Assembly (NCBI GenBank): GCA_009694735.1
Contig: SHUG01000002.1
Span: forward strand, 6,533 to 70,532
DNA: 64,000 nucleotides
Reading direction: 5' to 3'
DNA from: Acidobacteriota bacterium
Lineage (GTDB): Bacteria > Acidobacteriota > Vicinamibacteria > Vicinamibacterales > UBA2999
The position numbers and the translations under genes are program-made. The notes under the pieces are model-generated. The model was not told the DNA's origin. It saw only the letters and a program-made list of their open reading frames with translations, and ran no database searches. This document shows, piece after piece, positions 5,302-59,426 of this stretch (position 1 is its first letter; every line of letters starts with the position of its first letter).

Positions 5302-5838
5302 TCACGGGAGCAGCGCCAGACCCGCCAGCGTTTTCAGGTCCACGATCTCGCCCGAGAGCACCAGCGCGCGGGCCTCGTCGATCGTGAACGTGCGCGGCTC
5401 GATCTCTTCGTCCTCGTCCTTGCGGACCGTCGAGTCCGCAGCCGGTGGACGCAGGTCTTCGCACCGGCAGTAGATCATCTCTTCATCACAGAAGCCCGGC
5501 GTCGGGAAGTACCCGCGCAACCGCGTGACCCGGCCCGGTAGCAAGCCAATCTCTTCCTCGCACTCCCTCGCTGCCGCGGCCGCCGGATCTTCACCAGGCT
5601 TCAGCGTGCCGGCGGGCAATTCCCAGATCCAGCGGTCGATCGCATAGCGATACTGGCGGATGAGGATGATCGAGCCGGGTGCGGGCACCGGCAAGAGCAC
5701 GACCGATCCGGGGTGCCGGACGATCTCCATGTCCAGCGTGTGCCCGCTGGGGACGGTCACGCGATCGACCTCGAGCCTGACGATGCGCCCGGTGTGAATC
5801 ACCCGGTGCGAGAGACGGGTGGCGGTGCGGCTATTCAT
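5302..5838 (-). CDS. NUDIX hydrolase (ADP-ribose pyrophosphatase-like)
   Basis: Nudix box GTLKPGEDPAAAAARECEEEIGL. Confidence 0.85.
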   Translation of the reverse strand: MNSRTATRLSHRVIHTGRIVRLEVDRVTVPSGHTLDMEIVRHPGSVVLLPVPAPGSIILIRQYRYAIDRWIWELPAGTLKPGEDPAAAAARECEEEIGLLPGRVTRLRGYFPTPGFCDEEMIYCRCEDLRPPAADSTVRKDEDEEIEPRTFTIDEARALVLSGEIVDLKTLAGLALLP

Positions 5839-5845
5839 GTCTCAC

Positions 5846-6577
5846 CTACCGCGGCTTCGTCCCGACGAACCACTCGAAGGCCGCGCGAATCTCGGCGGGC
5901 GGCACGCGGTGGCCGCCTTGGTACTCGCGATAGGTCACGTCGTATCCGTCGGCCTTCAACTTTGGCAGATAGACCCGTGCGGTCTTGTCGATGGGCATTT
6001 GCGTGTCGTCCACGCCGTGGGCCATGAAAATTTTCGGCGTGCCCTGGTTGCGATACGGAATCATCTGCCCGCCCATGAAAATGATCAGGTGATTAAAGCT
6101 GTCGCCGTACGCCAGGCCCATCGACAGCGCGTAGCCGGCGCCGTCGGAGACGCCGCCGAGGGCGACGCGGGTGGTGTCGATGTCGACGATCTCGGCGACT
6201 CGGCGATAGGCGGGGCCCAGGTAGCGAACGTCGTCGTCGAAGCCGGGGATGGACCGGCCCCACGTCAGCCCGCGCGATTCGGGCGCGATCATGACGACGC
6301 CGAATTCCTCGGCCAGCGGGAACATGCCGCGCACGCCCTCGCCGGTGCCGGCAAACCCGTGCAGCATCATCATCAGCGGCATCGGCACGCCGGGCTTGTA
6401 GCTCTTGGGCACGTAGAGCGTGCCGTCGCGGTCGTCGTCCGAGATCCCGAGGCGGCTCTGGCCATAGGGGACCGCCGCGGGTGCTGGCTCCTGCGCGGCG
6501 AGCGGCGAGCCGTGCAGCAGGCCCAGGGCGCCGACGGCACTCGACGAGATGAAGACGCGTCGATTCATGGGCGGCAC
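5846..6577 (-). CDS. alpha/beta hydrolase, phospholipase/carboxylesterase-like, secreted
   Basis: N-terminal Tat/Sec-like signal (MNRRVFISSSAVGALGLL), a nucleophile elbow GVSDG, and a conserved HG near the C-terminus. Confidence 0.7.
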   Translation of the reverse strand: MPPMNRRVFISSSAVGALGLLHGSPLAAQEPAPAAVPYGQSRLGISDDDRDGTLYVPKSYKPGVPMPLMMMLHGFAGTGEGVRGMFPLAEEFGVVMIAPESRGLTWGRSIPGFDDDVRYLGPAYRRVAEIVDIDTTRVALGGVSDGAGYALSMGLAYGDSFNHLIIFMGGQMIPYRNQGTPKIFMAHGVDDTQMPIDKTARVYLPKLKADGYDVTYREYQGGHRVPPAEIRAAFEWFVGTKPR

Positions 6578-6650
6578 GTTACTACACTCCGCCGCGTCGG
6601 CGCGCGCGGCGTGGTCGCTATGTTAAACCGACCGGCGTGCCGCGCCGTCG

Positions 6651-7277
6651 ATGCAGCGGATTCCCGTCGGCGGCGTCTTCGGCCCGGGCGAGCGCGACGC
6701 CGAGTTCGATCAGCGCACTTCCGATGCGCTGCGCGGGTCGATGGAGCGCAGCCGGCAGACGCTCCAGCGTGGGCTCGATGGCGGACTGGCCGCGGCCAAC
6801 ATCGCGATACAGGCGTGGGCGGTCCTCCACACGAGCGATCACACCTGCCGCGCCAACACCGCGCCGGCCTCGATGCCGATTGTGCCGTCGATGTGCGCCG
6901 GGTCGGGCGAATGCGCGGCGTGCTACTCGCAGGCCTATGCCCGTTTGGACCGCTCGCGCGGCAATCTCGAGAAACTCCGCTGCATCTATCGCTGGAACCA
7001 GGAATACGTCGAGCGCGCGAAGTCTTTCGGCGACAACGTCAGCAGCGTGCACGGCATCTCGGGGCTGGCGTGGCAGTCCGAGCGGCGTAAGATCGAGCGG
7101 GCGTTCGACCAGATGGGTGTCACCGACGACGGAAAATATCGTCAGCTGCTGCGCTCCGTCCGCGACGACTTGGGCAACATCGGCGCCTGCGAAGCGCGCT
7201 TCTTCAGTAATCCAGACTGGGCCGTTCGCTACGGCTTCATGTTCTACGGCTTTCTCGAGGATCGCTACCGCCGCTGA
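6651..7277 (+). CDS. hypothetical protein
   Basis: High third-position GC, and the C-terminal half looks like real protein (…RWNQEYVERAKSFGDNVSS…). I recognise no motif. The start is uncertain. Confidence 0.45.
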   Translation: MQRIPVGGVFGPGERDAEFDQRTSDALRGSMERSRQTLQRGLDGGLAAANIAIQAWAVLHTSDHTCRANTAPASMPIVPSMCAGSGECAACYSQAYARLDRSRGNLEKLRCIYRWNQEYVERAKSFGDNVSSVHGISGLAWQSERRKIERAFDQMGVTDDGKYRQLLRSVRDDLGNIGACEARFFSNPDWAVRYGFMFYGFLEDRYRR

Positions 7278-7285
7278 GGCGGCGG

Positions 7286-9073
7286 CTATCGCGACAGAAT
7301 CACGAACTCGACACGCCGGTTGAGCAGCCGGTTCTTGTCCGTGTCGTTGGCGGCCATCGGCTGGCTTTCGCCGAAGCCCTTCGATTGCAGCCGCGCGGCC
7401 GCGATCCCGGCCTTGCTCAGGTACGTCACCACCGACGCCGCGCGGCCGTCCGATAATTTCTGATTGGTCGCGTCATCGTCCACCGCATCGGTGTGCCCGC
7501 GGATCTCAATCCGCATGGCCGGCATGTCACGCAGCAGCGTCGCAAGGCGATCGAGTTCGGCGCGTGACTCGGGCAGCAGCTCTGTCTTGGCGGTGTCGAA
7601 GAAGATGTTGTTCAATCGGATGGGCACGCCGGTCGCGATGGGAATGAGGATCAGGTTGCGCTCGAAGACCTGTTGGTCCTTGGCCTGCCGCAGATCGATG
7701 CGATCGCTCACCGCGATATAGCCGCCGGCGGAGGCGCGGAAGCCGTAGTCTTCGCCGATCGGCAGCGCAATCTGGTACCGCCCGTCACTTGGGTTGGCGC
7801 CGGCCTGGCCCGCCGCCTGTGTGTTCTTCAGGAACTCATACAGGATGCCCGCCGGCACCGGCTTCCCTGACGGGTCGGTGACCGTCCCGCGAACAAACGC
7901 CACCGGCGATGGCCGCATCGCCGCCGGCAGCTCGAACTCGTAGATGTCTTCCTTGCCGCGCTCGCCAAGCGACATAAAGGCCATCCGGCCGGTAGCGTCC
8001 ACGGCCAGGTTCATGTCGGCCTGCCTGGTGTTGATGTCGGGCCCGAGGTTTTGCGGCGGCGACCACTTCAGCCAGGTGTCGTCGAGCCGGCGCGACATCC
8101 AGATGTCGTTCTCACCCAGCCCACCGGCGCGTCCGGTCGAGAAATAGAGCGTCTGGTTGTCGGGCGCCAGCCACGGCGAGATCTCCTCTTGCGGCGAGTT
8201 GAGAATGGCGACGTTGAGCGGCTTGGCCCAGCGGCCGTCTGGCTGGATCAACGAGATGAACAGATCGCGGCTGCGGTTCTGGCTCTCGCTGTTGACGAGC
8301 GACAGAATCAACGCGCGTCCATTCGGAGCCAGAAAATAGTCGCTGCGCACGCCAGGCTGGTGCGCGAAGCCGATGATCTTGAGCGGCGCCGCCTCGCTCC
8401 ACGCGTTGCCGTTGCGGCGGCTGAAGCCAATCACCTTGTTCTGGTCGTCGCGCGTGGCATCGGGCGCCACGAGCGGTGGCAGCGCCGGCTTGGCGCCGGG
8501 CGCGCCCTGCTTGAGAATGTCGAACAGGTTGGCGTTGGGGTCGAAGTTTTTTGCGAACTCTCCAAACGGATCGCCGGCCTGCCACGTGCCCACGAGCAAG
8601 GTGTTGCCGTCCGGCAGCGCGGTGACGACGCCGGAACTCGAGACCTCGTTGTTGAGCGGAGCGGCCTGCCGCACGGCGGCCGACTAGGTGCCATCGGGCA
8701 GGCGGGTCGACTTGAACACGGTCTGCTTAACCGGGCCCGCGGGTGTCGCCGTGGCCTTGTTCGCCGAGGCCCGCGACTGCGCGATGACCTCTTCCATCAT
8801 CTTGCGCTGATCGGGCGGCAGCTTCTCCAGTTGCGCCTCGAGCGCCTTGAGGTTGGCCTCCATCGCGCTGGTGACGCGATTGATCATCGCGCCGTCCACA
8901 CCCTCGCGAATGAACCACAGCGTCTGCCCGTCGGGGCTGATCACCGGCAGCAATTCGCGATGGGTCGTGGTGTTGACGTTGGGGCCGAGCGGCCGTTTCT
9001 TGGCGGGCCCCTGCGCGTAGACCGGCGCGCACAGCGTTGCGAACAGGATGACGGCCGTCGCGAGCTTAAGCAT
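7286..9073 (-). pseudogene. PD40 (TolB-like) repeat / carboxypeptidase-regulatory-like / OmpA C-terminal domain protein, interrupted by an in-frame TAG at 8684-8686
   Basis: ORFs 8684..9073 (signal peptide plus SPDGQTLWF) and 7286..8674 are in the same frame, separated only by TAG. The OmpA motif is at the C-terminus (NRRVEFVILSR). The context DGT*SAAV matches the repeated DG-x-W-S/A motif, so TGG->TAG is likely. Confidence 0.75.
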
Positions 9074-9107: not shown

Positions 9108-10244
9108 CTACTCGTCGTCTTCGCCGTCTTCGTCGTGGTGGGTTTCTTCGGCGATCGACACCCGCGCGAACACCGTCTCGCGAATCTCCGGCGGCGCCAA
9201 TTCGTAGGCGATGGCCTCGAGGTCGGCCGGGATCGGCGCCATGAACTCCATCCGCTCCTTGGTCCGCGGGTGGGTGATGACGAGCCGCTCCGCGTGCAGG
9301 AACGGGCGGGCCAGCCGGGTCACCGCCTTCAGTGGATGGGGCACGCGCCGGTGTACGCCGCCGTAGAGCGCGTCGCCGACAATAGGATGGCCGATCGCGC
9401 TCAGGTGGACCCGGATTTGGTGGGTGCGGCCGGTGTGAATAGCCACCCGCAACAAGGTGACACCCTCCAGGTCGCGCGCCCACGTCACGCGGGTGATGGC
9501 GTCGCGCGATCGGCTGGCGCGCGTCGACATCTTCACGCGGTTCTTGGGGTCGCGGCCAATCCGGGCGTTGATGCGCTTGCGCTGCTGCACCAGGCCCCAC
9601 GCCAGCGCCACGTATTCCTTCTCGACTTCGCGATCGTGAAACTGCCGCGTCAGCTCGCGGTGTGCGTCGTCATTCTTGGCCACCACCATCACGCCCGAGG
9701 TTCCCTTGTCGAGCCGATGCACGATGCCCGGGCGAATCTCGCCGCCGATGCCGCTCAGATCCTTGATGTGATGCAGCAGCGCATTGACCAGCGTGCCAGA
9801 CGGGTTGCCCGCGGCCGGATGCACCACCATGCCCGCCGGCTTGTTGACGACGACGATGTCGACATCGTCGTAGAGGATCTCGATGGGCAGGTCTTCGGCT
9901 TGGGCGGCCGTCGCCGTGGGCGCCGGCAGCACCACCGAGATCACGTCGCCGTCGCGGATGTCGCTGTTGGACTTGGCGTCCTGGTAGCGCGAATGCGTGA
10001 CGTGACCGGTTTCGATCAGCCGCTGGATCTGGGACCGCGAGTAGTCGGCGATCTCACCGGCGAGAAATCGGTCGAGACGATCGCCGCGGTTGTCCTCGTT
10101 GGCCGTGAAATGCACGGTCGGCAGCGACGCCCGTGCATCAGGGATCGGGGATCGGGGATCGGGGATCGGGGATCCGGAATCGGGGACTTTCTTCCTGCGA
10201 CCCTTGCTCCGGTCTCTCGTCCCGGGCCCTTTACCCTGGCTCAT
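9108..10244 (-). CDS. rluD: RluA-family 23S rRNA pseudouridine synthase (RluD-like, S4 domain)
   Basis: HRLDKGTSGVMVVAK catalytic motif and an S4-like N-terminus (DRLDRFLAGEI). The ATG at 10244 overlaps the lgt stop (ATGA). An alternative GTG start lies at 10115, downstream of the heptamer array. Confidence 0.85.
   Translation of the reverse strand: MSQGKGPGTRDRSKGRRKKVPDSGSPIPDPRSPIPDARASLPTVHFTANEDNRGDRLDRFLAGEIADYSRSQIQRLIETGHVTHSRYQDAKSNSDIRDGDVISVVLPAPTATAAQAEDLPIEILYDDVDIVVVNKPAGMVVHPAAGNPSGTLVNALLHHIKDLSGIGGEIRPGIVHRLDKGTSGVMVVAKNDDAHRELTRQFHDREVEKEYVALAWGLVQQRKRINARIGRDPKNRVKMSTRASRSRDAITRVTWARDLEGVTLLRVAIHTGRTHQIRVHLSAIGHPIVGDALYGGVHRRVPHPLKAVTRLARPFLHAERLVITHPRTKERMEFMAPIPADLEAIAYELAPPEIRETVFARVSIAEETHHDEDGEDDE
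10137..10185. repeat. heptanucleotide tandem array, 7 units (ATCAGGG, ATCGGGG x4, ATCCGGA, ATCGGGG)
   Basis: Read directly from the sequence. It lies between the lgt stop and the conserved RluD core. Confidence 0.95.
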
Positions 10245-14492: not shown

Positions 14493-14524
14493 GGGCTTGG
14501 GGCTTGAGACTTGGGGCTTGGGGG
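14493..14524. repeat. heptanucleotide array GGGCTTG (GGGCTTG x2, AGACTTG, GGGCTTG, GGGG…)
   Basis: Read directly from the sequence. It lies in the ileS / M16 peptidase divergent intergenic region. Confidence 0.9.
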
Positions 14525-15852
14525 AAGGCGTGGCGATTCGCGAAACGGTCCTGGATAACGGCTTGAAGGTGCTCGTGCAGGAGGTTCACACCGCCCCGCT
14601 GGCGTCGGTGTGGTGCTGGTACCGCGTGGGGTCGAAGGACGAAACGCCCGGCGTCACCGGCGTCTCTCACTGGGTCGAGCACATGAACTTCAAGGGCACC
14701 CGGAACATTCCCCGGGACCAGGTGAAGGGCATCATCGAGAAGTTCGGTGGCAGCTGGAACGGCTACACCTGGATTGACCAGACGACCTATCTCGAAACGG
14801 CGTCGAAGGACGCCCTCGACCGCATGCTGTTCATCGAGGCCGAGCGCATGGACGCCTGCCTCTACGACCCGGCCGACTGTGAGTCGGAGCGGACGGTGAT
14901 CATCTCGGAGCTGCAAGGCGGCGAGAACGACCCCGAGCAACTGCTCGACACCGAGGTGACCGCTGCCGCCTTCAAGGTGCACCCGTATCACCACCCGACC
15001 ATCGGCTGGTTGTCGGACCTGCAGACCATGACGCGCGAGGACCTTTACGGCCACTATCGCCGGTTCTACGTCCCCGCCAACGCCACGATCGTCGTGGTCG
15101 GCGACGTCGAGACCGATGATGTGGTGAAGCGGGTGTCAGCGCAGTTTGGCGGCATTGCCTCGGGCGCGCGCAAGGCGGCCGTGCGCCAGGTGGAGCCCGA
15201 GCAGCAGGCCGAGCGTCGCGTGGTGCTGCGCAAAGAAGGCACCGCCGCCTACTGGAAGGCCGTGTTTCACGCGCCGGCGTTTGCGGACGAAGCCTTTTTC
15301 CCGCTGCTGGTGGCCGACGCCGTGCTCAACGGCGCCGCGGGCCTGAACATCTGGTCCGGGGGCGGCGTGTCGCGGCCACAGCGCAGCGCGCGGTTGTACC
15401 GGACGCTGGTGGATGGCGGTCTTGCCTCGAGCGTGAGCGGCGGATTGATGCCGACGGAGCATCCCTACCTCTATTCGCTCAGCGTTAGCGTGGCCGAAGG
15501 CGGTTCCCTCGCGGCCGTCGAGGACGCCGTGCTGAAGGAGGTGGCGCGTCTGCGACACGACGGCATCACCCCGGCGGAGTTGACCAAGGTCAACGCGCAG
15601 CTACGGGCGCGGTTTGTCTATGACGGCGACAGCGTGACCGACATCGCGCACCAGTTGGGCTATTTCGAAACGATCGGATCGTGGCGGAACTATCACGATC
15701 TGCGTGCCCGGCTCGAGGCGGTGACGGCCGAGGCGGTGCACGCCGCCGCCGTGAAGTACTTGACCCCTGCGAACCGGACCATCGGTTGGTTTGAACCGCA
15801 AGCCGGGATCGGGGATCCGGGATCCGGGATCCGGACAGGGTCATCGAAGTGA
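14497..15852 (+). CDS. M16 (pitrilysin) family zinc peptidase, catalytic subunit
   Basis: Inverted zinc motif HWVEH followed by NFKGT. The TTG start at 14497 lies inside the GGGCTTG array. A GTG at 14530 (VAIRETVLDNGLKVL) is an equally plausible start. Confidence 0.88.
   Translation: MGLETWGLGEGVAIRETVLDNGLKVLVQEVHTAPLASVWCWYRVGSKDETPGVTGVSHWVEHMNFKGTRNIPRDQVKGIIEKFGGSWNGYTWIDQTTYLETASKDALDRMLFIEAERMDACLYDPADCESERTVIISELQGGENDPEQLLDTEVTAAAFKVHPYHHPTIGWLSDLQTMTREDLYGHYRRFYVPANATIVVVGDVETDDVVKRVSAQFGGIASGARKAAVRQVEPEQQAERRVVLRKEGTAAYWKAVFHAPAFADEAFFPLLVADAVLNGAAGLNIWSGGGVSRPQRSARLYRTLVDGGLASSVSGGLMPTEHPYLYSLSVSVAEGGSLAAVEDAVLKEVARLRHDGITPAELTKVNAQLRARFVYDGDSVTDIAHQLGYFETIGSWRNYHDLRARLEAVTAEAVHAAAVKYLTPANRTIGWFEPQAGIGDPGSGIRTGSSK
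15805..15839. repeat. heptanucleotide array (GGGATCG, GGGATCC x3, GGACAGG)
   Basis: Read directly from the sequence. It encodes the C-terminal tail (GIGDPGSGIRTG) of the first M16 gene, just before the GTGA junction with the second. Confidence 0.9.
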
Positions 15853-23171: not shown

Positions 23172-23227
23172 GGGATCAGGGATCGGGGATCAGGGATCCG
23201 GGACGGGAGATCGGGGACAGGGGATCT
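23172..23227. repeat. heptanucleotide array, 8 units (GGGATCA/GGGATCG/GGGATCC plus degenerate units)
   Basis: Read directly from the sequence. It fills most of the thiD-stop / moaE-start spacer. Confidence 0.9.
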
Positions 23228-30485: not shown

Positions 30486-30513
30486 CCCCGATCCCTGATC
30501 CCTGATCCCTGAT
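30486..30513. repeat. heptanucleotide array, C-rich strand up (CCCCGAT, CCCTGAT x3)
   Basis: Read directly from the sequence. It occupies the whole spacer between the TAA at 30483-30485 and the ATG at 30512. Confidence 0.9.
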
Positions 30514-31201
30514 GCCCCCCGCGCTCATTCTCTTTGACATCGACGGCACCTTGCTGCTCAGCGGCCGTGCCGGCCTGCGCGCCATGACGCGCGCCTTTGC
30601 CGCGACCTTCGGCATCGCCGACGGTTTCAAGGACCAGTCGTTCGGCGGCCGGACCGATTCGTTCCTCGTCTCGCAGGCGTTGCAGGCGGCCGGCCTGCCC
30701 GACACCGCGGAGCACCACGCGCGCTTCCGCCAGGCCTACGTGCCGCTCCTGGAGGAAGAGATTCAGCAGCCTGGCGCCGGCCACAAGGGGTTGATGCCGG
30801 GCGCCCGCGCGCTGGTCGAGGCCCTCGTCGATCACGACCACCTGCATGTTGCGTTACTGACCGGAAACTATCGCGCCGCGGCCGAGATCAAACTCCGGCA
30901 CTTCGAACTGTGGGACTTCTTCGAGTGGGGCGCTTTCAGCGACGATGCGGCGGACCGCAATGCGCTGGTGCCGATCGCGCGGCAGCGGGCGGAAACCTAC
31001 GATGTGCCACCCGAGGCGCTGGCCCGCGTGATCGTGATCGGCGACACACCGCACGACATCGAATGCGCCCGGGTCGCCGGCGCCCAGTCGATTGCGGTGG
31101 CGACCGGGGGCCACTCAGTCGAGGAGCTGCGCGCGGCCGGTGCCGACATCGTGCTGGCCGACTTGTCAGACACCGAAAGGGTCGTCGCGCTGCTGATATG
31201 A
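30512..31201 (+). CDS. HAD-superfamily hydrolase (phosphoglycolate phosphatase-like)
   Basis: Motif I LFDIDGTLL and motif IV GDTPHD. Confidence 0.85.
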   Translation: MPPALILFDIDGTLLLSGRAGLRAMTRAFAATFGIADGFKDQSFGGRTDSFLVSQALQAAGLPDTAEHHARFRQAYVPLLEEEIQQPGAGHKGLMPGARALVEALVDHDHLHVALLTGNYRAAAEIKLRHFELWDFFEWGAFSDDAADRNALVPIARQRAETYDVPPEALARVIVIGDTPHDIECARVAGAQSIAVATGGHSVEELRAAGADIVLADLSDTERVVALLI

Positions 31202-31208
31202 TTTGACC

Positions 31209-31304
31209 GGAAGTGAACGGGGCCCGGTGGCCCTCCCGGTCTTCAAAATCGGTCGCTGCCTCCTTGCGGGGCAGGCTGGGTTCGACTCCCAGGCGCTTCC
31301 GCCA
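31209..31304 (+). tRNA. selC: tRNA-Sec (anticodon UCA), CCA encoded
   Basis: GGAAG…CTTCCGCCA acceptor ends and a 6-bp D stem (GGGGCC/GGCCCT) with a 4-nt loop. Anticodon loop CTTCAAA, a long variable arm (CTGCC…GGCAG) and T arm CTGGG-TTCGACT-CCCAG. It closely parallels E. coli selC as I remember it. Confidence 0.9.
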
Positions 31305-33822: not shown

Positions 33823-34128
33823 CGGCGTGCGCGGTTCACGTTGCGAGGACAGCGTTTCTTGACACCGAAGTTGACACCACGTTTTCGGCAACACACTTGC
33901 GACATGTCGCAACTGGTTGCTGAGTACTTAGGTGACTGACGTTTGCCTGAATGCACCCATCGCGGGCGATCCTACCTGCCGCAGCTCGAATGGCTTCAGC
34001 GCCTGGTCGTCAGTCAGACCGGCTTCGGCCTTCGGCCTCGCCTAAATCGGCTCGACTCCCAGGCATGGGCTCGGCTCGCCTTCGCTCGGGTCACACTCCC
34101 ACGCCCCAAGCGCCACACCCCACGCCCA

Positions 34129-50634: not shown

Positions 50635-50732
50635 GGATCAGGGATCAGGGATCAGGGATCAGGGATCAGGGATCAGGGATCAGGGATCAGGGATCAGGGA
50701 TCAGGGATCAGGGATCAGGGATCAGGGATCAG
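50635..50732. repeat. heptanucleotide array, 14 perfect tandem GGATCAG units
   Basis: Counted unit by unit from the sequence. It is followed by the degenerate unit GGACGCC. Confidence 0.97.
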
Positions 50733-50832
50733 GGACGCCACGACATTGTCTGCCCAGGCGCCAGACACCCGGATTACGAACGTGGGGCCGTGCGAGAACT
50801 GGCCGACACCGTGTAAACGCTCGCCGGGCTAG

Positions 50833-50859: not shown

Positions 50860-50908
50860 AAGCCTCGTCAAGCCCCAAGCCCCAGGCCCCAGGCCCCAAG
50901 CCTCGTCA
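50859..50908. repeat. heptanucleotide array AGCCCCA x2 / GGCCCCA x2 flanked by direct repeats CAAGCCTCGTCA
   Basis: Read directly from the sequence. It is the reverse-complement family of GGGCTTG and abuts the TGA stop at 50906-50908. Confidence 0.85.
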
Positions 50909-53524: not shown

Positions 53525-55366
53525 TTACTGCACGCCAAACGCCAGCAACACGTTGCCGGCCATCTGGCCGAACGAGCCATAGCCTGAGTTGGTGAACACC
53601 ATGCCGTTGACGATGGTGGCGCCGGGGCCGTTGATGGAGCCGCCGCGCGCCTTGATGCCGTTGACGGTCTCGAAGTCGCGCGCCGTGGCGAACTCCCACA
53701 GCACCTTGCCGTCGGCGGCACTATAGGCACGCATCATCCCGTCGGTCGCGCCGGAGAACACCACGCCGGGGATCAGGCTGGCCGCCGCCGACTGCGCCGG
53801 GATGCACTTCATGGTTTGATCCGGGCAGGTGGCAATGGGCGGCGCCCACCACTCGCGCTCGCCGGTCGCCAGGCGAATGGCCGCGAGTCCACCGGCCGCC
53901 TTCATCCCGAGCAGGCCATCGGCATTCGGGTAGTAGACGAGGCGATCGTCAGCCGCGCCACCCCACTCGATGCCGCCGAGTGCCGTGCCCTGGCCGACGC
54001 GATGCTGCCACACCACCGAGCCATCATCGGGGTTGAGGCCCCAGGCCAGGCCTGATTTCTGGCCGACGGCGAGAATGCGGCGGCCGCCGGCGAGCGTGCG
54101 AAGGATGGGAGAAGTGCCCACCGCGAAGTCGGGACCGGTTTCTTGCGGGCACGTTTCTGATTTGGCGTTCGGACCGCAACCGATGACATAGGCGTCGTTC
54201 GGTGTCAGCTGGCGCGTCCATAATCGCTTGCCCGACGCGAGATCGAGCGCCATCACGGCGTCGGTCGTGTTGACGGCCGGGTAGGTGTAGCCGTTACTGG
54301 TGGACAGGTAGATTCGCCCGCGCACCGGATCGATGGTGGGCGCCGACCACACGGCGGCGCCCGCGGGTCCCCACAACTGCGTGCCGGTGGACGTTTTCCG
54401 CATCGGCACGGCGGCTTCGGAGATGGTGAACGACTGCCAGCGCTGTTCGCCGGTGCTGGCGTCGTACGCGATCACGCTGCCGCGAAACGAACAGCAGGGA
54501 TAGGCCGGGTTGCCACCCAAGGCTTCTTCGATCGACGACACCGGCACGTAGAGACGGCCGTCATGAAACGCGGGGGCGCCGGTAATGCGCGCGACCGGAT
54601 GGGGGTCGGCATGCTTCGACCACAGGAGAGCGGCGCTCTCGGCATCGATCGCGTAAACGTTCGCCCTGACATCACCAAAGAACACCGCGAACCGCGAGCC
54701 GCCCGTCTTGACCGGCGCGACCGTGATTGCCGTGCGCACGGCCGCCTTCGCTTGATACGACCAATAGACGCAGCCGCTCGCCGCATCGAGTGAATAGACG
54801 AAGCCGTTATCGGAGCCGACGTAGATGCGGCCGCCCATCACGGTCGGCTGTCCAAAAGCCTGCCGGCCTTCAGGGAAGCCAAACGCCCATTTCAGCGTCA
54901 GCGTCGGCACGGTGGCCGCGGTCAGGCCCGCTGCGGCTGCCGGCTGAAAGCGGGTGTTGGATTTGTCAGCGCCCCAGCCATTCCAGCCTGGTCCGTCGAG
55001 GGGATTGCCCAGCGGCTTCGCGGCACACTGATTCTTCATCGTTGATGCAGGTCCGGCCGTTGCCGTGCCGAATGATCGTCCGGACACATACTCGGCGATC
55101 GCACGCATTTGCGCCTCGGTCAGGCCAGACGCCATCGGCGCCATGCTGCCGGTGGTGATCGCCGAGAAAATAGCCTCCGGCGCCCGTCCCTGCAGTTGCG
55201 CGCGAGCGGGCGCCCGGCTGCCGGGTTCTGGATTCACGTGGCAGCTCGCGCACTTGTCCGTGAAGGGCAGCAGCCCAGTGACACCGAAGCCCTGGGCCGC
55301 CGCGTTCGAGGCGCCGGCGATCACCACAACACAGAGGAGGACGAGTGACACGCGCATGCCTCGCAT
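53525..55366 (-). CDS. PQQ-repeat beta-propeller quinohemoprotein with N-terminal cytochrome c domain (polyvinyl-alcohol-dehydrogenase-like architecture)
   Basis: Signal peptide and a CASCH heme site near the N-terminus, followed by PQQ-type propeller repeats. An alternative ATG lies at 55357. Confidence 0.8.
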   Translation of the reverse strand: MRGMRVSLVLLCVVVIAGASNAAAQGFGVTGLLPFTDKCASCHVNPEPGSRAPARAQLQGRAPEAIFSAITTGSMAPMASGLTEAQMRAIAEYVSGRSFGTATAGPASTMKNQCAAKPLGNPLDGPGWNGWGADKSNTRFQPAAAAGLTAATVPTLTLKWAFGFPEGRQAFGQPTVMGGRIYVGSDNGFVYSLDAASGCVYWSYQAKAAVRTAITVAPVKTGGSRFAVFFGDVRANVYAIDAESAALLWSKHADPHPVARITGAPAFHDGRLYVPVSSIEEALGGNPAYPCCSFRGSVIAYDASTGEQRWQSFTISEAAVPMRKTSTGTQLWGPAGAAVWSAPTIDPVRGRIYLSTSNGYTYPAVNTTDAVMALDLASGKRLWTRQLTPNDAYVIGCGPNAKSETCPQETGPDFAVGTSPILRTLAGGRRILAVGQKSGLAWGLNPDDGSVVWQHRVGQGTALGGIEWGGAADDRLVYYPNADGLLGMKAAGGLAAIRLATGEREWWAPPIATCPDQTMKCIPAQSAAASLIPGVVFSGATDGMMRAYSAADGKVLWEFATARDFETVNGIKARGGSINGPGATIVNGMVFTNSGYGSFGQMAGNVLLAFGVQ

Positions 55367-55375
55367 CCTACCTCA

Positions 55376-55431
55376 GGGATCGGGGATCGGGGATCGGGGA
55401 TCGGGGATCGGGGATCGGGGATCGGGGAGGG
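55376..55431. repeat. heptanucleotide array, 7 perfect GGGATCG units plus GGGAGGG
   Basis: Counted from the sequence. It lies 10 nt from the PQQ gene ATG and directly abuts the blaI fragment. Confidence 0.95.
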
Positions 55432-55658
55432 ACCACGTCCGCCACGAAGAGCACGGGCTGCGCTTCGTCTACATGCCGACCGTGCCGCGACACACGGCGC
55501 GCAAGTCGGCACTCAATCACCTCGTCGACACCTTCTTTGACGGCTCCCACGCCAAGGTCGTGACCACCCTGCTCGGCAGCGACCCGTCGCGGCTGTCGGA
55601 TGACGACCTGGACCGCATTGCCGAGTTGATCGCGACAGCGCGAAAGGCGGGGCGATGA
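55432..55658 (+). pseudogene. BlaI/MecI/CopY-family repressor, C-terminal fragment only
   Basis: …HVRHEEHGLRFVYMPTV…LSDDDLDRIAELIATARKAG matches the end of the winged helix plus the dimerisation helix. About 50 N-terminal DNA-binding residues are absent, with the heptamer array in their place. The stop overlaps the blaR1-like start (ATGA). Confidence 0.65.
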
Positions 55659-57265
55659 ACGCCATCGATATCGGCCTGCGTGCCACCGTCGTGGTGTTGA
55701 TGGCACTGCTGGCATCAGCGGCGCTGCGCCGGCGCGCGGCCGCCCTGCGTCACTGGGTGCTCGCCGCAGGCATTCTCTCGGCGGCCGCGGTGGCGCCATG
55801 GGGCCTGGCGCTGCCGGCATGGGATCTGCCAGCGCGGCCGCCGACGGGCGAGACACCAGCCGGCTCGCTGGTCACCGGAAAGCCGATCGGCGCCGCCGCG
55901 GCGTCGTCTAGTAAGCCGGAAAGGCGGGCCGAGTCACCGGCCGGTCTATCGATTGCGCCTGTCGTCAACATGGTGTGGGCAGCCGGCGTCTTCGTCGGCA
56001 CTCTCACCATACTGGTCAGCTTACGCCGGCTGTCGCGGCTGACGAACGCGGCACCACCGATGACCGATTCCCGATGGCTCGGGCTGGCGCAGGAACTCTC
56101 ATCGAGCCTCGACGTCGGCGCAGTCGTGACGCTGCGGCAAACCGACCTATTGACCGCGCTCGGTACGTGGGGCTGGCGACGGCCGAGCGTGCTGCTGCCG
56201 GCGGGTTGTGAAACCTGGCGCGACGAGCGCATCCGCATCGTGTTCGGCCACGAGCTGGCGCACATTCGCCGGGCCGACTGGCCGCTGCAGATGGCCGCGG
56301 ATGTCGTGCGCGCGGTGTTTTGGTACAACCCGCTGTTCTGGATCGCCTGCGCGCGGTTGCGTCGCGAGAGCGAAGAGGCCTGCGACAACGCCGTGCTCGA
56401 AGCCGGCGTCCCCGCCGCCGACTATGCCTCACACCTGTTGGCGATCGCCAGGACGTGCCGCGCGCCGTCTCCGCTGGCGACGCTCGTCCCGATGGCGCGG
56501 CCGTCCACGCTCGAATGGAGGATTGCTGCAATGTTGAATCACACGCTCGCACGCACACGTCCCACGCGCCGCACGCTCGCCCTGGTGTTCGCGGTCATCG
56601 TTGGCATCACGCTCACCACCGCCAGCTTCCGGGCGAACGAGCAGGTTGGGCCCATGCCATTCACCGGCACCGCATACGACGTCACCGGCGCGGTGTTGCC
56701 CGGTGTCGCCCTGACGCTGGACGACCACGCGGCCCATCGGCTGACCGCCACCACTGACAGTCATGGCCGCTTCGACTTCGGCACGGTCGCGTCCGGCCGT
56801 TACCTGGTGGGCTCGAAGTTGCCCGGCTTCCTGTCGTTGGCGGAGGAAGTGCGGCTGGAAAGCGCCCGGCAGTGGGGTCTGTCACTGACGATCCAGGTCG
56901 GCACCATCCAGGAGAGGATTACCGTCAAGGAACAACGTCCATCGACGGCGCCAGGCCGCGTCGAACGCGCGCCGGTGCGGGTTGGCGGTAACATCCGGCC
57001 GCCGCGCAAGCTGGTGGACGTCCGGCCGGTGTATCCGCAGGCGATGCGCGATGCCGGACTTGAAGGCATCGTCTCACTCGCCGCACTGATCGACGTGACG
57101 GGACGCGTCTCGTCGGTGCGGGTCACGGGCTCGCCGGCGCACCCGGACCTCGCGAAGGCCGCCGCCGACGCCGTGCGTCAGTGGCAGTTCAGCCCAACGC
57201 TGCTCAATGGTGAGACCGTCGAAGTCTTGATGAACGTGTCGGTCGCGTTCAGTTTGGAGAACTGA
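55655..57265 (+). CDS. BlaR1-like M56 peptidase sensor fused to carboxypeptidase-regulatory-like and TonB C-terminal domains
   Basis: HELAHIRRADW zinc motif after the TM segments. The C-terminus (…RPVYPQAMRDAGLEGIV…QWQFSPTLLNG…) is TonB_C-like. Confidence 0.85.
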   Translation: MNAIDIGLRATVVVLMALLASAALRRRAAALRHWVLAAGILSAAAVAPWGLALPAWDLPARPPTGETPAGSLVTGKPIGAAAASSSKPERRAESPAGLSIAPVVNMVWAAGVFVGTLTILVSLRRLSRLTNAAPPMTDSRWLGLAQELSSSLDVGAVVTLRQTDLLTALGTWGWRRPSVLLPAGCETWRDERIRIVFGHELAHIRRADWPLQMAADVVRAVFWYNPLFWIACARLRRESEEACDNAVLEAGVPAADYASHLLAIARTCRAPSPLATLVPMARPSTLEWRIAAMLNHTLARTRPTRRTLALVFAVIVGITLTTASFRANEQVGPMPFTGTAYDVTGAVLPGVALTLDDHAAHRLTATTDSHGRFDFGTVASGRYLVGSKLPGFLSLAEEVRLESARQWGLSLTIQVGTIQERITVKEQRPSTAPGRVERAPVRVGGNIRPPRKLVDVRPVYPQAMRDAGLEGIVSLAALIDVTGRVSSVRVTGSPAHPDLAKAAADAVRQWQFSPTLLNGETVEVLMNVSVAFSLEN

Positions 57266-59426
57266 TCCGCGTGGCGCGGGCGAGCGCGTTTTCGAGCTTC
57301 TTTTTCTGCAGGGGCTTGCTCAGGTGATCGTCCATGCCCGCCGCCAGGCACTCGAGGCGATCGTCCTCGAACGCGTTGGCGGTCAGGGCGACGATGCGGG
57401 GCCGGTGGCCGATGGGGTGTTCCGCCAGAATCTGGCGGGTGGCATCCAGGCCGTCGAGTTCCGGCATTTGTAGATCCATCAGCACCACGTCGTACCGCAC
57501 CTGGCGCACGGCCTTGACGGCCTCGAGCCCGTTGGCCACCAGGTCGGCGCGATAGCCGAGGCGATCGAGCATCAGGAGCGCAATCTTCTGGTTCACGAAG
57601 TTGTCTTCCGCCACCAGCACGCGCAGCGGGTGGCGATCCGCCATCCGCGGCAGCGACATGATGTCGGACGCCGGCCGCTCTGGCGCCGGGTCTGGCGCCA
57701 GGAGATCCGACACCGCGTTATACAGGCGCGACGCTCGGACCGGCTTGGTCAACGCCGCTGCGAAGGCGTCGTTGGGCCCGAACTCCGGGCGGCTGAGCGA
57801 CGATAACAGGATCAGCGGTGGCGTGCCGCCGCCAAGTTGGTTGCGGATCTCGGCGGCCAGCCCGAACCCGTCCATCTCGGGCATCTGCATGTCGACCAGG
57901 GCGAGATCGAACCGCTGACCCTCGCCGATCCACGCCAGTGCTTCGCGTCCCGAGGCGGCCGCGGTCGCCGCCAGTCCCCACGATTCAAACTGGCGGAGCA
58001 GCGACCGCCGGGTCGCGGCGTGATCATCCACGATCAGCACGCGCCGGCCCGCCAGATGCTGTTGATCGCCGCCGGCCGCCACGCCCTGGTTCACGGTCTT
58101 GGGCGCGCGCGCGGGGCCAGCGGCCGCCTGGATCACGAACGAGACGCGGGTGCCCTTGCCAAACTCGCTTTCGACCCAGATGCGGCCGCCCAGCAGCTTG
58201 GCGAGCTGTTGGGAGATCGCCAGGCCCAGCCCGGTGCCGCCGTACTTGCGCGTCGTCGACGCGTCGACCTGGCTGAACGAATCAAACAGCGTGGCGATCC
58301 CGCCCGCCGGAATGCCGATGCCGGTGTCTTCGACAACGAACGTGACGTCGAGCAGGGCCGAGGCCGGCAGCGGCACGGCGCTGACGGTCACCGAAACGTC
58401 GCCGGCGTGGGTGAACTTCACCGCATTGCCCAGCAGGTTGACCAGAATCTGCCGAATGCGCCCACCGTCGCTGACGATCACCGACGGCACTGACGGTTCA
58501 ATCTGGTGGCTGAGGTTGAGGCCCTTGGTCTCGGCCAGTGCCGCGACCAGGTCGAGCGCGTCCTCGACGCAACCTTGCGGCTCAAACGGCTGCCGCTCCA
58601 AATCCAGCTTGCCGGCGTCGATCTTCGAGAAATCCAGGATGTCGTTGATGATCGCCAGCAGGCCGTCGCCACTCGATCGAATGGTCTCGACGTACTCGCG
58701 CTGCTGGGCGCTGAGCTTGGTGTCGAGCAGCAGGCTGGTCATGCCGATCACGCCGTTCATGGGCGTGCGAATCTCGTGGCTCATGCTCGCCAGGAACGTG
58801 GTCTTGGCGAGCCCCGCGGCTTCGGCCGCGGTCTTGGCCGACTCCAATTGCCGGTTCGAGTCGCGTATGTCGTCGCGCAGCTTGCTCACGTAGCCACCCA
58901 TCGCCGCGAACCATGGCAGTGTCACCGCGAGCACGATCGGCTTGAGGATCTCGTCCTCCATCGCGACGACGCCCGGCTTGAAGCGATCGAGCGCCAGCAC
59001 CTGCACGCCGTACGCGAGAATCGCGGTAACCGCGAGCAGCACCAACTGCCGGGTGCGCAGCTTGAACACGCCGAACAGCAACGCCATCAGGAACACCAGC
59101 AGCAGGGCCCCGCGTCCGCGATCGGCGTAGTACATGATCTACGCCATCGTGACGATGGACGAAGCCACTTGCGGGGCGGTGAGGCTGGGGTCGCTGAAGC
59201 GGAGGTTGAAGCCACTGCGGATCGCGATGAAGAACACCGCGATCCAGAGCAGGATGAGGGCGGTGCCCTGCACCAGCCCGGTCCATTCGAGCCCGCCGAA
59301 CGCGTAGGTAATGCCCAGCAGGGCAATCACCATCAGCGACGTGCCGGCCGCCATCAGGAAGCGGCGGGTTCTCAGTGCCTGGCGATCGTCGCCGTCCCCT
59401 GACTGCACCCGACGAGAATACGTCAT
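57249..59426 (-). pseudogene. hybrid sensor histidine kinase (membrane N-domain, HisKA, HATPase, two receiver domains) with an in-frame TAG at 59139-59141
   Basis: H-box SHEIRTPMNG, G-boxes, and two REC domains (…VDDH…, …VAEDN…). ORF 59139..59426 (TM segments) is in the same frame as 57249..59135, separated by TAG-ATC. Confidence 0.8.

Follow-up and report, generated by a model that had tools for sequence, protein, structure and literature searches.

Analysis of a 64,000-nucleotide (64-kb) stretch of DNA from a soil bacterium of the Vicinamibacterales (Acidobacteriota), here called the window, showed that the gene upstream of a BlaR1-like sensor retains only the C-terminal part of a BlaI-type repressor, and that homology to intact orthologues stops at a heptamer array. 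This very probably reflects a recent, lineage-specific deletion from the edge of the array to blaI codon 55, with the loss of the promoter, the operator and the DNA-binding half of the repressor. It is ordinary strain-level gene loss beside a common heptamer microsatellite, and not a new kind of system.

The blaI Remnant and Its Neighbourhood

The translation of positions 55428-55655 (76 aa) matched Pfam PF03965 (Penicillinase_R) with an E-value of 1e-10, over profile positions 49-114 of 115 only. The frame upstream of it (55065-55427) gave no Pfam match. In tblastn searches with the BlaI proteins of the relatives L005 and L006, the window was covered only from residue 55/56 to residue 129. 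The remnant thus represents residues 56-129 of the 129-aa orthologues, comprising the wing hairpin and the C-terminal dimerisation domain, and is 93-97% identical to the intact relatives. The first-pass annotation had described a blaI gene reduced to its last ~75 codons, namely the end of the winged helix and the dimerisation part, and joined to blaR1 by an ATGA overlap. This description was borne out, the overlap consisting of an ATG at 55655-55657 and a TGA at 55656-55658. The same overlap is present in the orthologues with a blaI frame ending at 6004 (e.g., L005-L008 and L012). The earlier figure of ~50 missing codons was right in that the N-terminus is gone, but low, as homology starts at residue 56 and 55 codons are absent.

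A PDB search with the single sequence returned no match, and a profile of 30 sequences was needed. The profile aligned end to end with MecI (1sd6, 1okr) and with the isolated BlaI DNA-binding domain (1p6r). When compared with 29 full-length relatives and the MecI/BlaI structures, the missing residues 1-55 correspond to helices 1-3 of the winged helix, including the recognition helix, and the remnant sets in with the wing strand after that helix. Both the dimerisation helices and the stretch aligned to the MecI/BlaI cleavage site are retained. At the junction, the window sequence AGGGACCAC aligns with AAGGGCCAC of the intact genes (codons K-G-H, residues 54-56). Since the G-rich blaI codons are similar to the array unit, the junction cannot be placed to the exact base.

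Two open reading frames over the remnant appear in public records. The methionine of FVYMP (55473), from which the 61-aa frame begins, had been named as the first canonical start after the array, which is correct; a further in-frame ATG lies before the array (55357). No Shine-Dalgarno-like sequence was seen by eye upstream of the 61-aa frame. The 100-aa frame is open through the array only with the 53-nt array of the window, and is out of frame in the 60-nt alleles of L001 and L002. We regard its continuity as a chance event with a one-in-three probability. The value of these observations for annotation is that both the 61-aa and the 100-aa public "genes" are a pseudogene stub.

The gene on the other side of the array encodes a PQQ-dependent dehydrogenase and is divergent. 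Its 613-aa form starts at an ATG on the complement of 55364-55366, and public gene calls give a 610-aa form starting at 55357, so that the gap to the array is 9 nt or 18 nt, respectively. The distance had previously been given as 10 nt. The dehydrogenase has 97% amino acid identity to that of L085, with a dN/dS of 0.095. The BlaR1-like protein is intact, with a Peptidase_M56 domain (PF05569, E=9.6e-27) in which HExxH is present as HELAH. Pfam analysis showed CarboxypepD_reg and TonB_C at its C-terminus and no penicillin-binding sensor domain. The NCBIfam model blaR1_generic scored 77.9 bits against a cut-off of 400, over profile positions 104-321 only. As TonB_C stands in place of a penicillin-binding domain, the protein would not be a beta-lactam sensor. 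The 3' ends of blaR1 and of the convergent kinase gene overlap by 17 nt (57249-57265), and this neighbourhood is kept in L005, L007 and L008 and also in L006, where the kinase is more divergent.

Table 1. Features of the window and of orthologous loci in relatives.
Feature	Position	Strand	Basis or remark
PQQ-dependent dehydrogenase gene, with N-terminal cytochrome c domain and signal peptide	53525..55366	-	ORF; Pfam PQQ/PQQ_2/Cytochrome_CBB3
Heptamer microsatellite (GGGATCG)x7.6 = (GGGGATC)n	55376..55428	+	TRF, shuffles, G4Hunter
Deletion junction zone (GGGGA followed by GGGACCAC)	55428..55436	+	DNA alignment, flank comparison
blaI remnant (pseudogene), 74-76 codons	55434..55655 (or from 55428)	+	Pfam, tblastn, alignments
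100-aa ORF through the array, NCBI hypothetical protein EXQ50_00825 (P0001)	55357..55658	+	ATG (55357) + array + remnant
61-aa ORF from the Met of FVYMP	55473..55658	+	Gene call in public ENA and Logan assemblies
BlaR1-like gene, intact, 536 aa: Peptidase_M56 + CarboxypepD_reg + TonB_C	55655..57265	+	Pfam, NCBIfam
Hybrid histidine kinase/response regulator gene, convergent	57249..59135	-	ORF, Pfam, synteny; conserved neighbour
Eight further period-7 arrays (units GGGATCN, GGGCTTG, CCCACGC)	10137-10186, 14493-14523, 15803-15834, 23172-23222, 30486-30517, 34098-34127, 50635-50735 (14.4 copies), 50869-50902		
Promoter and operator of BlaI/BlaR1-TonB operons	L085 4255-4310; L005/L007/L012 5560-5620; L006 5560-5620		
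ligD-type pair between the PQQ or PNP gene and blaI	L005 3092-5516; L007; L012 3326-5546; L091 434-2813; L092 538-2986		

Intact Loci in Related Genomes

The relatives of the BlaR1-like protein were all from Vicinamibacterales/Acidobacteriota metagenome-assembled genomes. An open blaI frame was found in all 22 orthologous loci with sequence upstream of blaR1; in 21 it encodes ~125-130 aa, and in L010 it is cut by the contig end. In L012, the blaR1 orthologue is split into two frames at ~6815 (tblastn matches 6001-6816 and 6815-7606; ORF of 285 aa), by a frameshift or an assembly error. The remnant had 1875 protein homologues at E<=1e-10, and the 120 listed were almost all of 122-130 aa; the exceptions among these were about eight of 113-114 aa, one of 86 aa and the 100-aa ORF of the window's own genome. 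The comparison with orthologous loci that had been proposed earlier thus revealed a full-length blaI in the relatives, and a short form without the winged helix is not the conserved native form.

The nearest intact loci (L085, L086 and L090) are 93-96% identical to the window at the DNA level in the PQQ gene, the PNP gene and the blaI remnant, and have the same gene order (VitK2-PNP-PQQ-blaI-blaR1-HK). A promoter, TTGACA-N17-T(A/G)(T/G)TTT, is conserved in the 15 upstream regions inspected, together with a near-perfect palindromic operator, ATGTTATAAAAATAACATG, which contains the blaI start codon. The operator core GTTAT-N4-ATAAC had 17 matches in the 901 kb of DNA retrieved, each of them located at a blaI start. 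As a by-product, the analysis thereby defines the promoter and operator of a widespread, uncharacterised acidobacterial BlaI/BlaR1-TonB operon, and the operator is usable for a regulon search.

The spacer between the PQQ gene and blaI differs among these loci. In L085, L086 and L090, it is unique sequence without an array. In L005, L007 and L012, an array with the window's unit and left register (2-5 units) is followed by a divergent ligD-type pair, an ATP-dependent DNA ligase and a LigD primase-polymerase (NHEJ-type), and then by an intact blaI. The pair is absent from L085 and L006, and no ligD genes were found elsewhere in the 64-kb window. In L006, a sevenfold AGTTGAA array occupies the orthologous place, with the promoter directly after it and an intact blaI. 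None of the close relatives examined had a direct precursor allele, in which a GGGATCG array would run straight into an intact promoter and blaI. Among the relatives, the segment between the PQQ gene and blaI is a variable cassette site, and L008 lacks the PQQ gene altogether.

The orthologous operons have the classic autoregulated layout of the BlaI/MecI/CopY repressors with BlaR1/MecR1 M56 sensor-proteases (PF03965 and PF05569; structures 1okr/1sd6 and 1sd4/1p6r), with a winged-helix repressor of ~129 aa that is ATGA-coupled to an HExxH M56 protease, and a palindromic operator in their own promoter. As established for BlaI/BlaR1 and MecI/MecR1, the repressor binds its own operator and is inactivated by the M56 protease when a signal arrives. 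While the remnant of the window aligns with the wing and the C-terminal dimerisation domain of these repressors, it lacks helices 1-3, the operon lacks promoter and operator, and the sensor carries CarboxypepD_reg and TonB_C and not the penicillin-binding domain of BlaR1/MecR1.

A dimerisation-only BlaI-like product could in principle be native and functional, possibly switched between frames by 7-nt changes of the array. The 100-aa ORF, composed of ATG, array and remnant, is in frame in the window, and one further unit would put it out of frame; the cleavage-site region and the dimerisation helices are conserved, and the ATGA coupling to blaR1 is kept. However, the short form is confined to the window lineage, the listed homologues are nearly all full length, there is no promoter, and the ATG at 55357 lies over the opposite-strand start of the PQQ gene. 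Furthermore, an in-frame fusion has a one-in-three chance of arising, and the array copy number in the assembly is uncertain. We consider this reading highly improbable.

A related proposal is that the array is a phase-variable translational switch. At 53 nt, it would fuse the ATG at 55357 to the BlaI C-terminal domain, yielding a DNA-binding-deficient product with the dimerisation and cleavage-site region that could serve as a decoy or as a dominant-negative partner of paralogous BlaI repressors, and gating translation of the TonB-domain BlaR1-like sensor through the ATGA overlap; a change of one unit would turn both off. The array shares with simple-sequence contingency loci a unit length that is not a multiple of 3, a position inside an annotated ORF and a copy number that varies between strains, but differs from them in that the gene behind it is a truncated remnant without a promoter. 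A switch of this kind is very unlikely.

Sequences Lost from the Window

Relative to L085, L086 and L090, ~280 nt of spacer, promoter, operator and codons 1-55 are replaced in the window by an array of 53-60 nt, a net loss of more than 200 nt at the locus. A regular-expression search of the whole 64-kb window for the operator and the TTGACA/TATTTT promoter was negative, and no sigma-70-like promoter site was found in 55200-55900. The tblastn searches of the window with full-length and N-terminal-only BlaI of the relatives gave nothing above noise for the N-terminal half. A search of the protein collection with the N-terminal 55 aa returned only seven short proteins, the best having 89% identity and lying on a 1,068-base contig, which constitutes a weak negative. 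The search for the missing half that the first-pass annotation had suggested was thus negative in frame, elsewhere in the window, and for near-identical matches in the protein collection. In other metagenomic genomes, ORFs of 81-97 aa matching the BlaI N-terminal half were observed (P0125, P0126 and P0127, on contigs of 8 kb, 14 kb and 170 kb), and truncated blaI genes of opposite polarity may also occur elsewhere.

These searches bear on whether blaI was split by recombination between two arrays, through an inversion or a translocation that would have placed the promoter and the 5' half beside another array. Arrays with an identical unit do exist elsewhere, such as that at 10137-10186 on the same strand, and the PQQ-to-blaI segment differs among the relatives. 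An array-array exchange would nevertheless require an array inside blaI, which no relative has, and the 64-kb window yielded neither the blaI 5' half nor the operator or promoter; in the protein collection, there was no near-identical ORF of the N-terminal part only (best identity 89%). We therefore regard such a rearrangement as quite improbable.

The loss extends beyond what had been noted earlier, when the BlaR1-TonB sensor was described as left without its cognate repressor; the repressor is indeed truncated, and the promoter and operator have also gone. Since no consensus promoter was recognised upstream of blaR1, the sensor-repressor module is now most likely transcriptionally silent or nearly so, and on its way to loss. 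As blaR1 shows no decay, it may still be expressed from an unrecognised promoter. Any other promoters repressed by BlaI would now be constitutively derepressed. For annotation, the orthologues are not a safe guide to the regulation and expression of the adjacent BlaR1-like gene.

Authenticity of the Junction

An identical BlaR1 protein is encoded on seven public contigs. Among these, L001 and L002 (Logan) and two ENA contigs of one sample carry the PQQ gene, the short Penicillinase_R ORF and blaR1. The junction GGGGAGGGACCACGTCC is identical in the Logan contigs from SRR31412735 and SRR12053441, and the contigs from SRR12053440 and SRR8561391 begin inside the array with an unchanged right flank. 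The presence of the same junction in independent assemblies argues that it is not a chimera or an assembly artefact.

The alternative of a false junction, whether chimeric or due to collapse of a shared repeat, with an intact blaI in the true genome, had to be considered, as the GGGATCG unit is present at several loci and short-read assemblers break at such arrays (L003 and L004 in the 55376 array, L001 in the array at 50635-50735). However, at least four sequencing runs, an ENA assembly and the NCBI MAG independently yielded this junction with its flanks. Variant units in the arrays of L001 and L002 make the path through them unique, and a chimera formed at the array would still need an array abutting blaI codon 56 in a real genome. 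An artefact of this kind is extremely unlikely. The heptamer arrays fragment the short-read assemblies at defined points, with L001 starting at window position 50707, and L003 and L004 at 55416; L001-L004 all end at 58251.

The Heptamer Array at the Junction

The array at 55376-55428 was identified by TRF as a perfect period-7 repeat of GGGATCG with 7.6 copies, 100% matches and a score of 106. In 100 dinucleotide-preserving shuffles, the expected number of matches to a 21-nt, three-unit GGGATCG probe was 0. The earlier statement that a sevenfold GGGATCG array sits exactly where the orthologue homology stops was accurate, and so was the reading of the array as a deletion breakpoint. The G-rich strand of the array is the + strand, and the PQQ gene is encoded on the other.

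The array had a G4Hunter score of 2.44, which expresses sequence potential only. As a single strand, it folds worse than shuffled sequence (z=+2.1), with no Watson-Crick structure and no competing hairpin, and an Rfam search of the whole window found no known RNA in the array. In dog-1 mutants of C. elegans, deletions reportedly remove a G-tract together with the sequence 5' of it. We do not claim a G4-triggered deletion of that type, since in the window it is the sequence 3' of the G-rich strand that is missing, with the array still present.

The array differs in unit composition and copy number between the window and L001/L002. Its length is 53 nt in the window assembly and 60 nt in the L001/L002 alleles (7.6-8.6 units), among strains that are otherwise 99.8-99.9% identical; as the perfect 53-nt array comes from a short-read assembly, its copy number may be wrong. 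Over 7.5 kb, the window differs from L001 by six mismatches and a single 7-nt indel (99.83% identity). The indel falls within the array, as do four of the mismatches according to our own comparison of the array sequences. The array appears to change far faster than its flanks, with the caveat that repeats are hard to assemble.

At the left boundary, CATCCTAC(C/A)TCA followed by GGGATC, the register is the same as in L007 and L012, and also L005, all with an intact blaI. Because this register is common to relatives with an intact blaI, the array is likely to predate the deletion.

The first-pass annotation had proposed, as a second reading, that expansion of the array destroyed the gene. A microsatellite that grew within, or was inserted into, blaI and overwrote its 5' part would be consistent with the greater length of the window's array (7.6-8.6 units) than in L005, L007 and L012 (2-5 units), and with the AGTTGAA array of L006, which fills about the same spacer length as unique sequence does in L085. 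Expansion adds DNA, however, and cannot remove ~0.28 kb of promoter, operator and coding sequence; with ~280 nt absent and an array of 53-60 nt, expansion alone cannot give a net loss of more than 200 nt, and no partial blaI sequence is interspersed in the array. This reading is hardly credible. In L006, the AGTTGAA array lies at 5505-5555, where L085 (4190-4250) and L012 (5540-5560) have unique sequence with a single AAGGTTG, and it seems to have grown from this local seed with the spacer length about unchanged.

Age and Probable Course of the Deletion

The remnant had a dN/dS of 0.09-0.13 against the nearest intact relatives, compared with 0.05-0.18 for intact-intact pairs. The corresponding values for BlaR1 were 0.26 (against L085) and 0.17-0.37. 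Neither the remnant nor BlaR1 therefore differed from the intact-intact pairs, and no relaxed selection after the deletion was detected by this measure. The remnant and blaR1 in the window contain no frameshifts, and HELAH is intact. With no decay evident from dN/dS in either gene, the deletion is likely to be recent. It appears to be younger than the split from L085 (dS ~0.13-0.2), and to be fixed among the 99.8-99.9% identical strains sampled.

On the simplest history, the G-rich heptamer microsatellite just upstream of the PQQ gene would be old and would have existed before the deletion, with a variable segment between it and the blaI promoter. A single deletion in the window lineage would then have run from the right edge of the array into blaI, taking the sigma-70-type promoter (TTGACA-N17-TATTTT), the operator over the start codon and the segment for helices 1-3. 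This would have left a non-functional blaI stub (wing and dimerisation domain), ATGA-joined to an intact blaR1-type gene. The size of the deletion would be ~0.28 kb, or ~2.7 kb if the ancestor carried the ligD pair. At least one further event is needed besides the deletion, because the closest intact relatives have no array and the array-sharing relatives have the ligD pair.

The array flank of the relatives (GGGGAAG) resembles blaI codons 50-55 (GAG GAG AAG GGC CAC). Microhomology of the array, or of this G-rich flank, with these codons (GAG GAG AAG GGC) could have guided the deletion. The array marks the edge of the deletion, and the repeat may or may not have had a causal part in it. Since the array fills nearly all of the remaining intergenic space, a deletion leaving the PQQ gene intact would seem to have no other place to end. 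The link between the repeats and genome rearrangement that had been drawn from the sequence was not upheld, in that L005, L007, L012 and L006 all have an array at this spot, just upstream of the PQQ gene, and yet retain an intact blaI. Should deletions turn out to end preferentially at such arrays, the arrays would contribute to the loss of regulatory genes in these soil bacteria, a point that one case cannot establish.

Heptamer Arrays in the Window and the Clade

The window contains nine period-7 arrays by TRF, with the units GGGATCG/A/C and GGGCTTG and one weak CCCACGC. All nine were judged by eye to be intergenic, in short gaps, with the G-rich strand either antisense and no more than ~30 nt before a start codon (~6-30 nt for the eight arrays other than that at 55376) or sense and immediately past a stop codon. 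In 889 kb of Vicinamibacterales DNA, 7 was the commonest tandem-repeat period, with 112 arrays of at least three copies. These comprise dozens of unrelated units, many of which are not G-rich (e.g., AGTTGAA and AAGTACG), and G4 formation therefore cannot be the whole story of the heptamer excess. The data document heptamer microsatellites in Vicinamibacterales, both G-rich and others, as abundant, gene-adjacent, fast-changing and assembly-breaking.

The array at 55376 resembles the GGGNATC-type, G4-forming heptamers of Xanthomonas and Nostoc (Rehm et al. 2015, PMC4692102). The unit GGGGATC fits GGGNATC, and the array is a tandem heptamer with a G-tract of 3-4 and at least four units. As in that study, the arrays are numerous in each genome and lie only between genes, they differ in length and sequence from one close relative to another, and all nine window arrays follow the published strand and placement rule, as judged by eye. 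By this rule, the 55376 array would belong to the PQQ gene and not to blaI. The published heptamers form quadruplexes, whereas the G4 of the window's array is predicted from sequence. The host phylum also differs, being Acidobacteriota here, and the clade has many unrelated, partly non-G-rich units.

The discussion of the same study attributes the bacterial heptamer excess to polymerase slippage. Repeat-bearing loci were found there to be more stable than controls (PMC4692102), which argues against every such array being a rearrangement hot spot; the window's array, in contrast, borders a deletion.

A second comparison is with the TAACTGA heptamers of Beggiatoaceae, cyanobacteria and Bacteroidetes (MacGregor 2015, PMC4679880). 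These are likewise tandem heptamers of variable copy number, located from a few to some tens of nucleotides before the start codons of many unrelated genes. They differ in unit sequence, and the G-rich strand of the window's array is antisense to the downstream gene.

Two further features were observed. GATC is present in every unit of the 55376-55428 array and of the other GGGATCN arrays, which form dense clusters of a common methyltransferase and restriction site, and the ENA gene table lists an N6_N4 methyltransferase gene a few kb downstream of the 55376-55428 array. The sole Rfam match in the window was a tRNA-Sec (RF01852, 61.9 bits) at 31209-31300 on the + strand, directly downstream of a gene ending at 31201.
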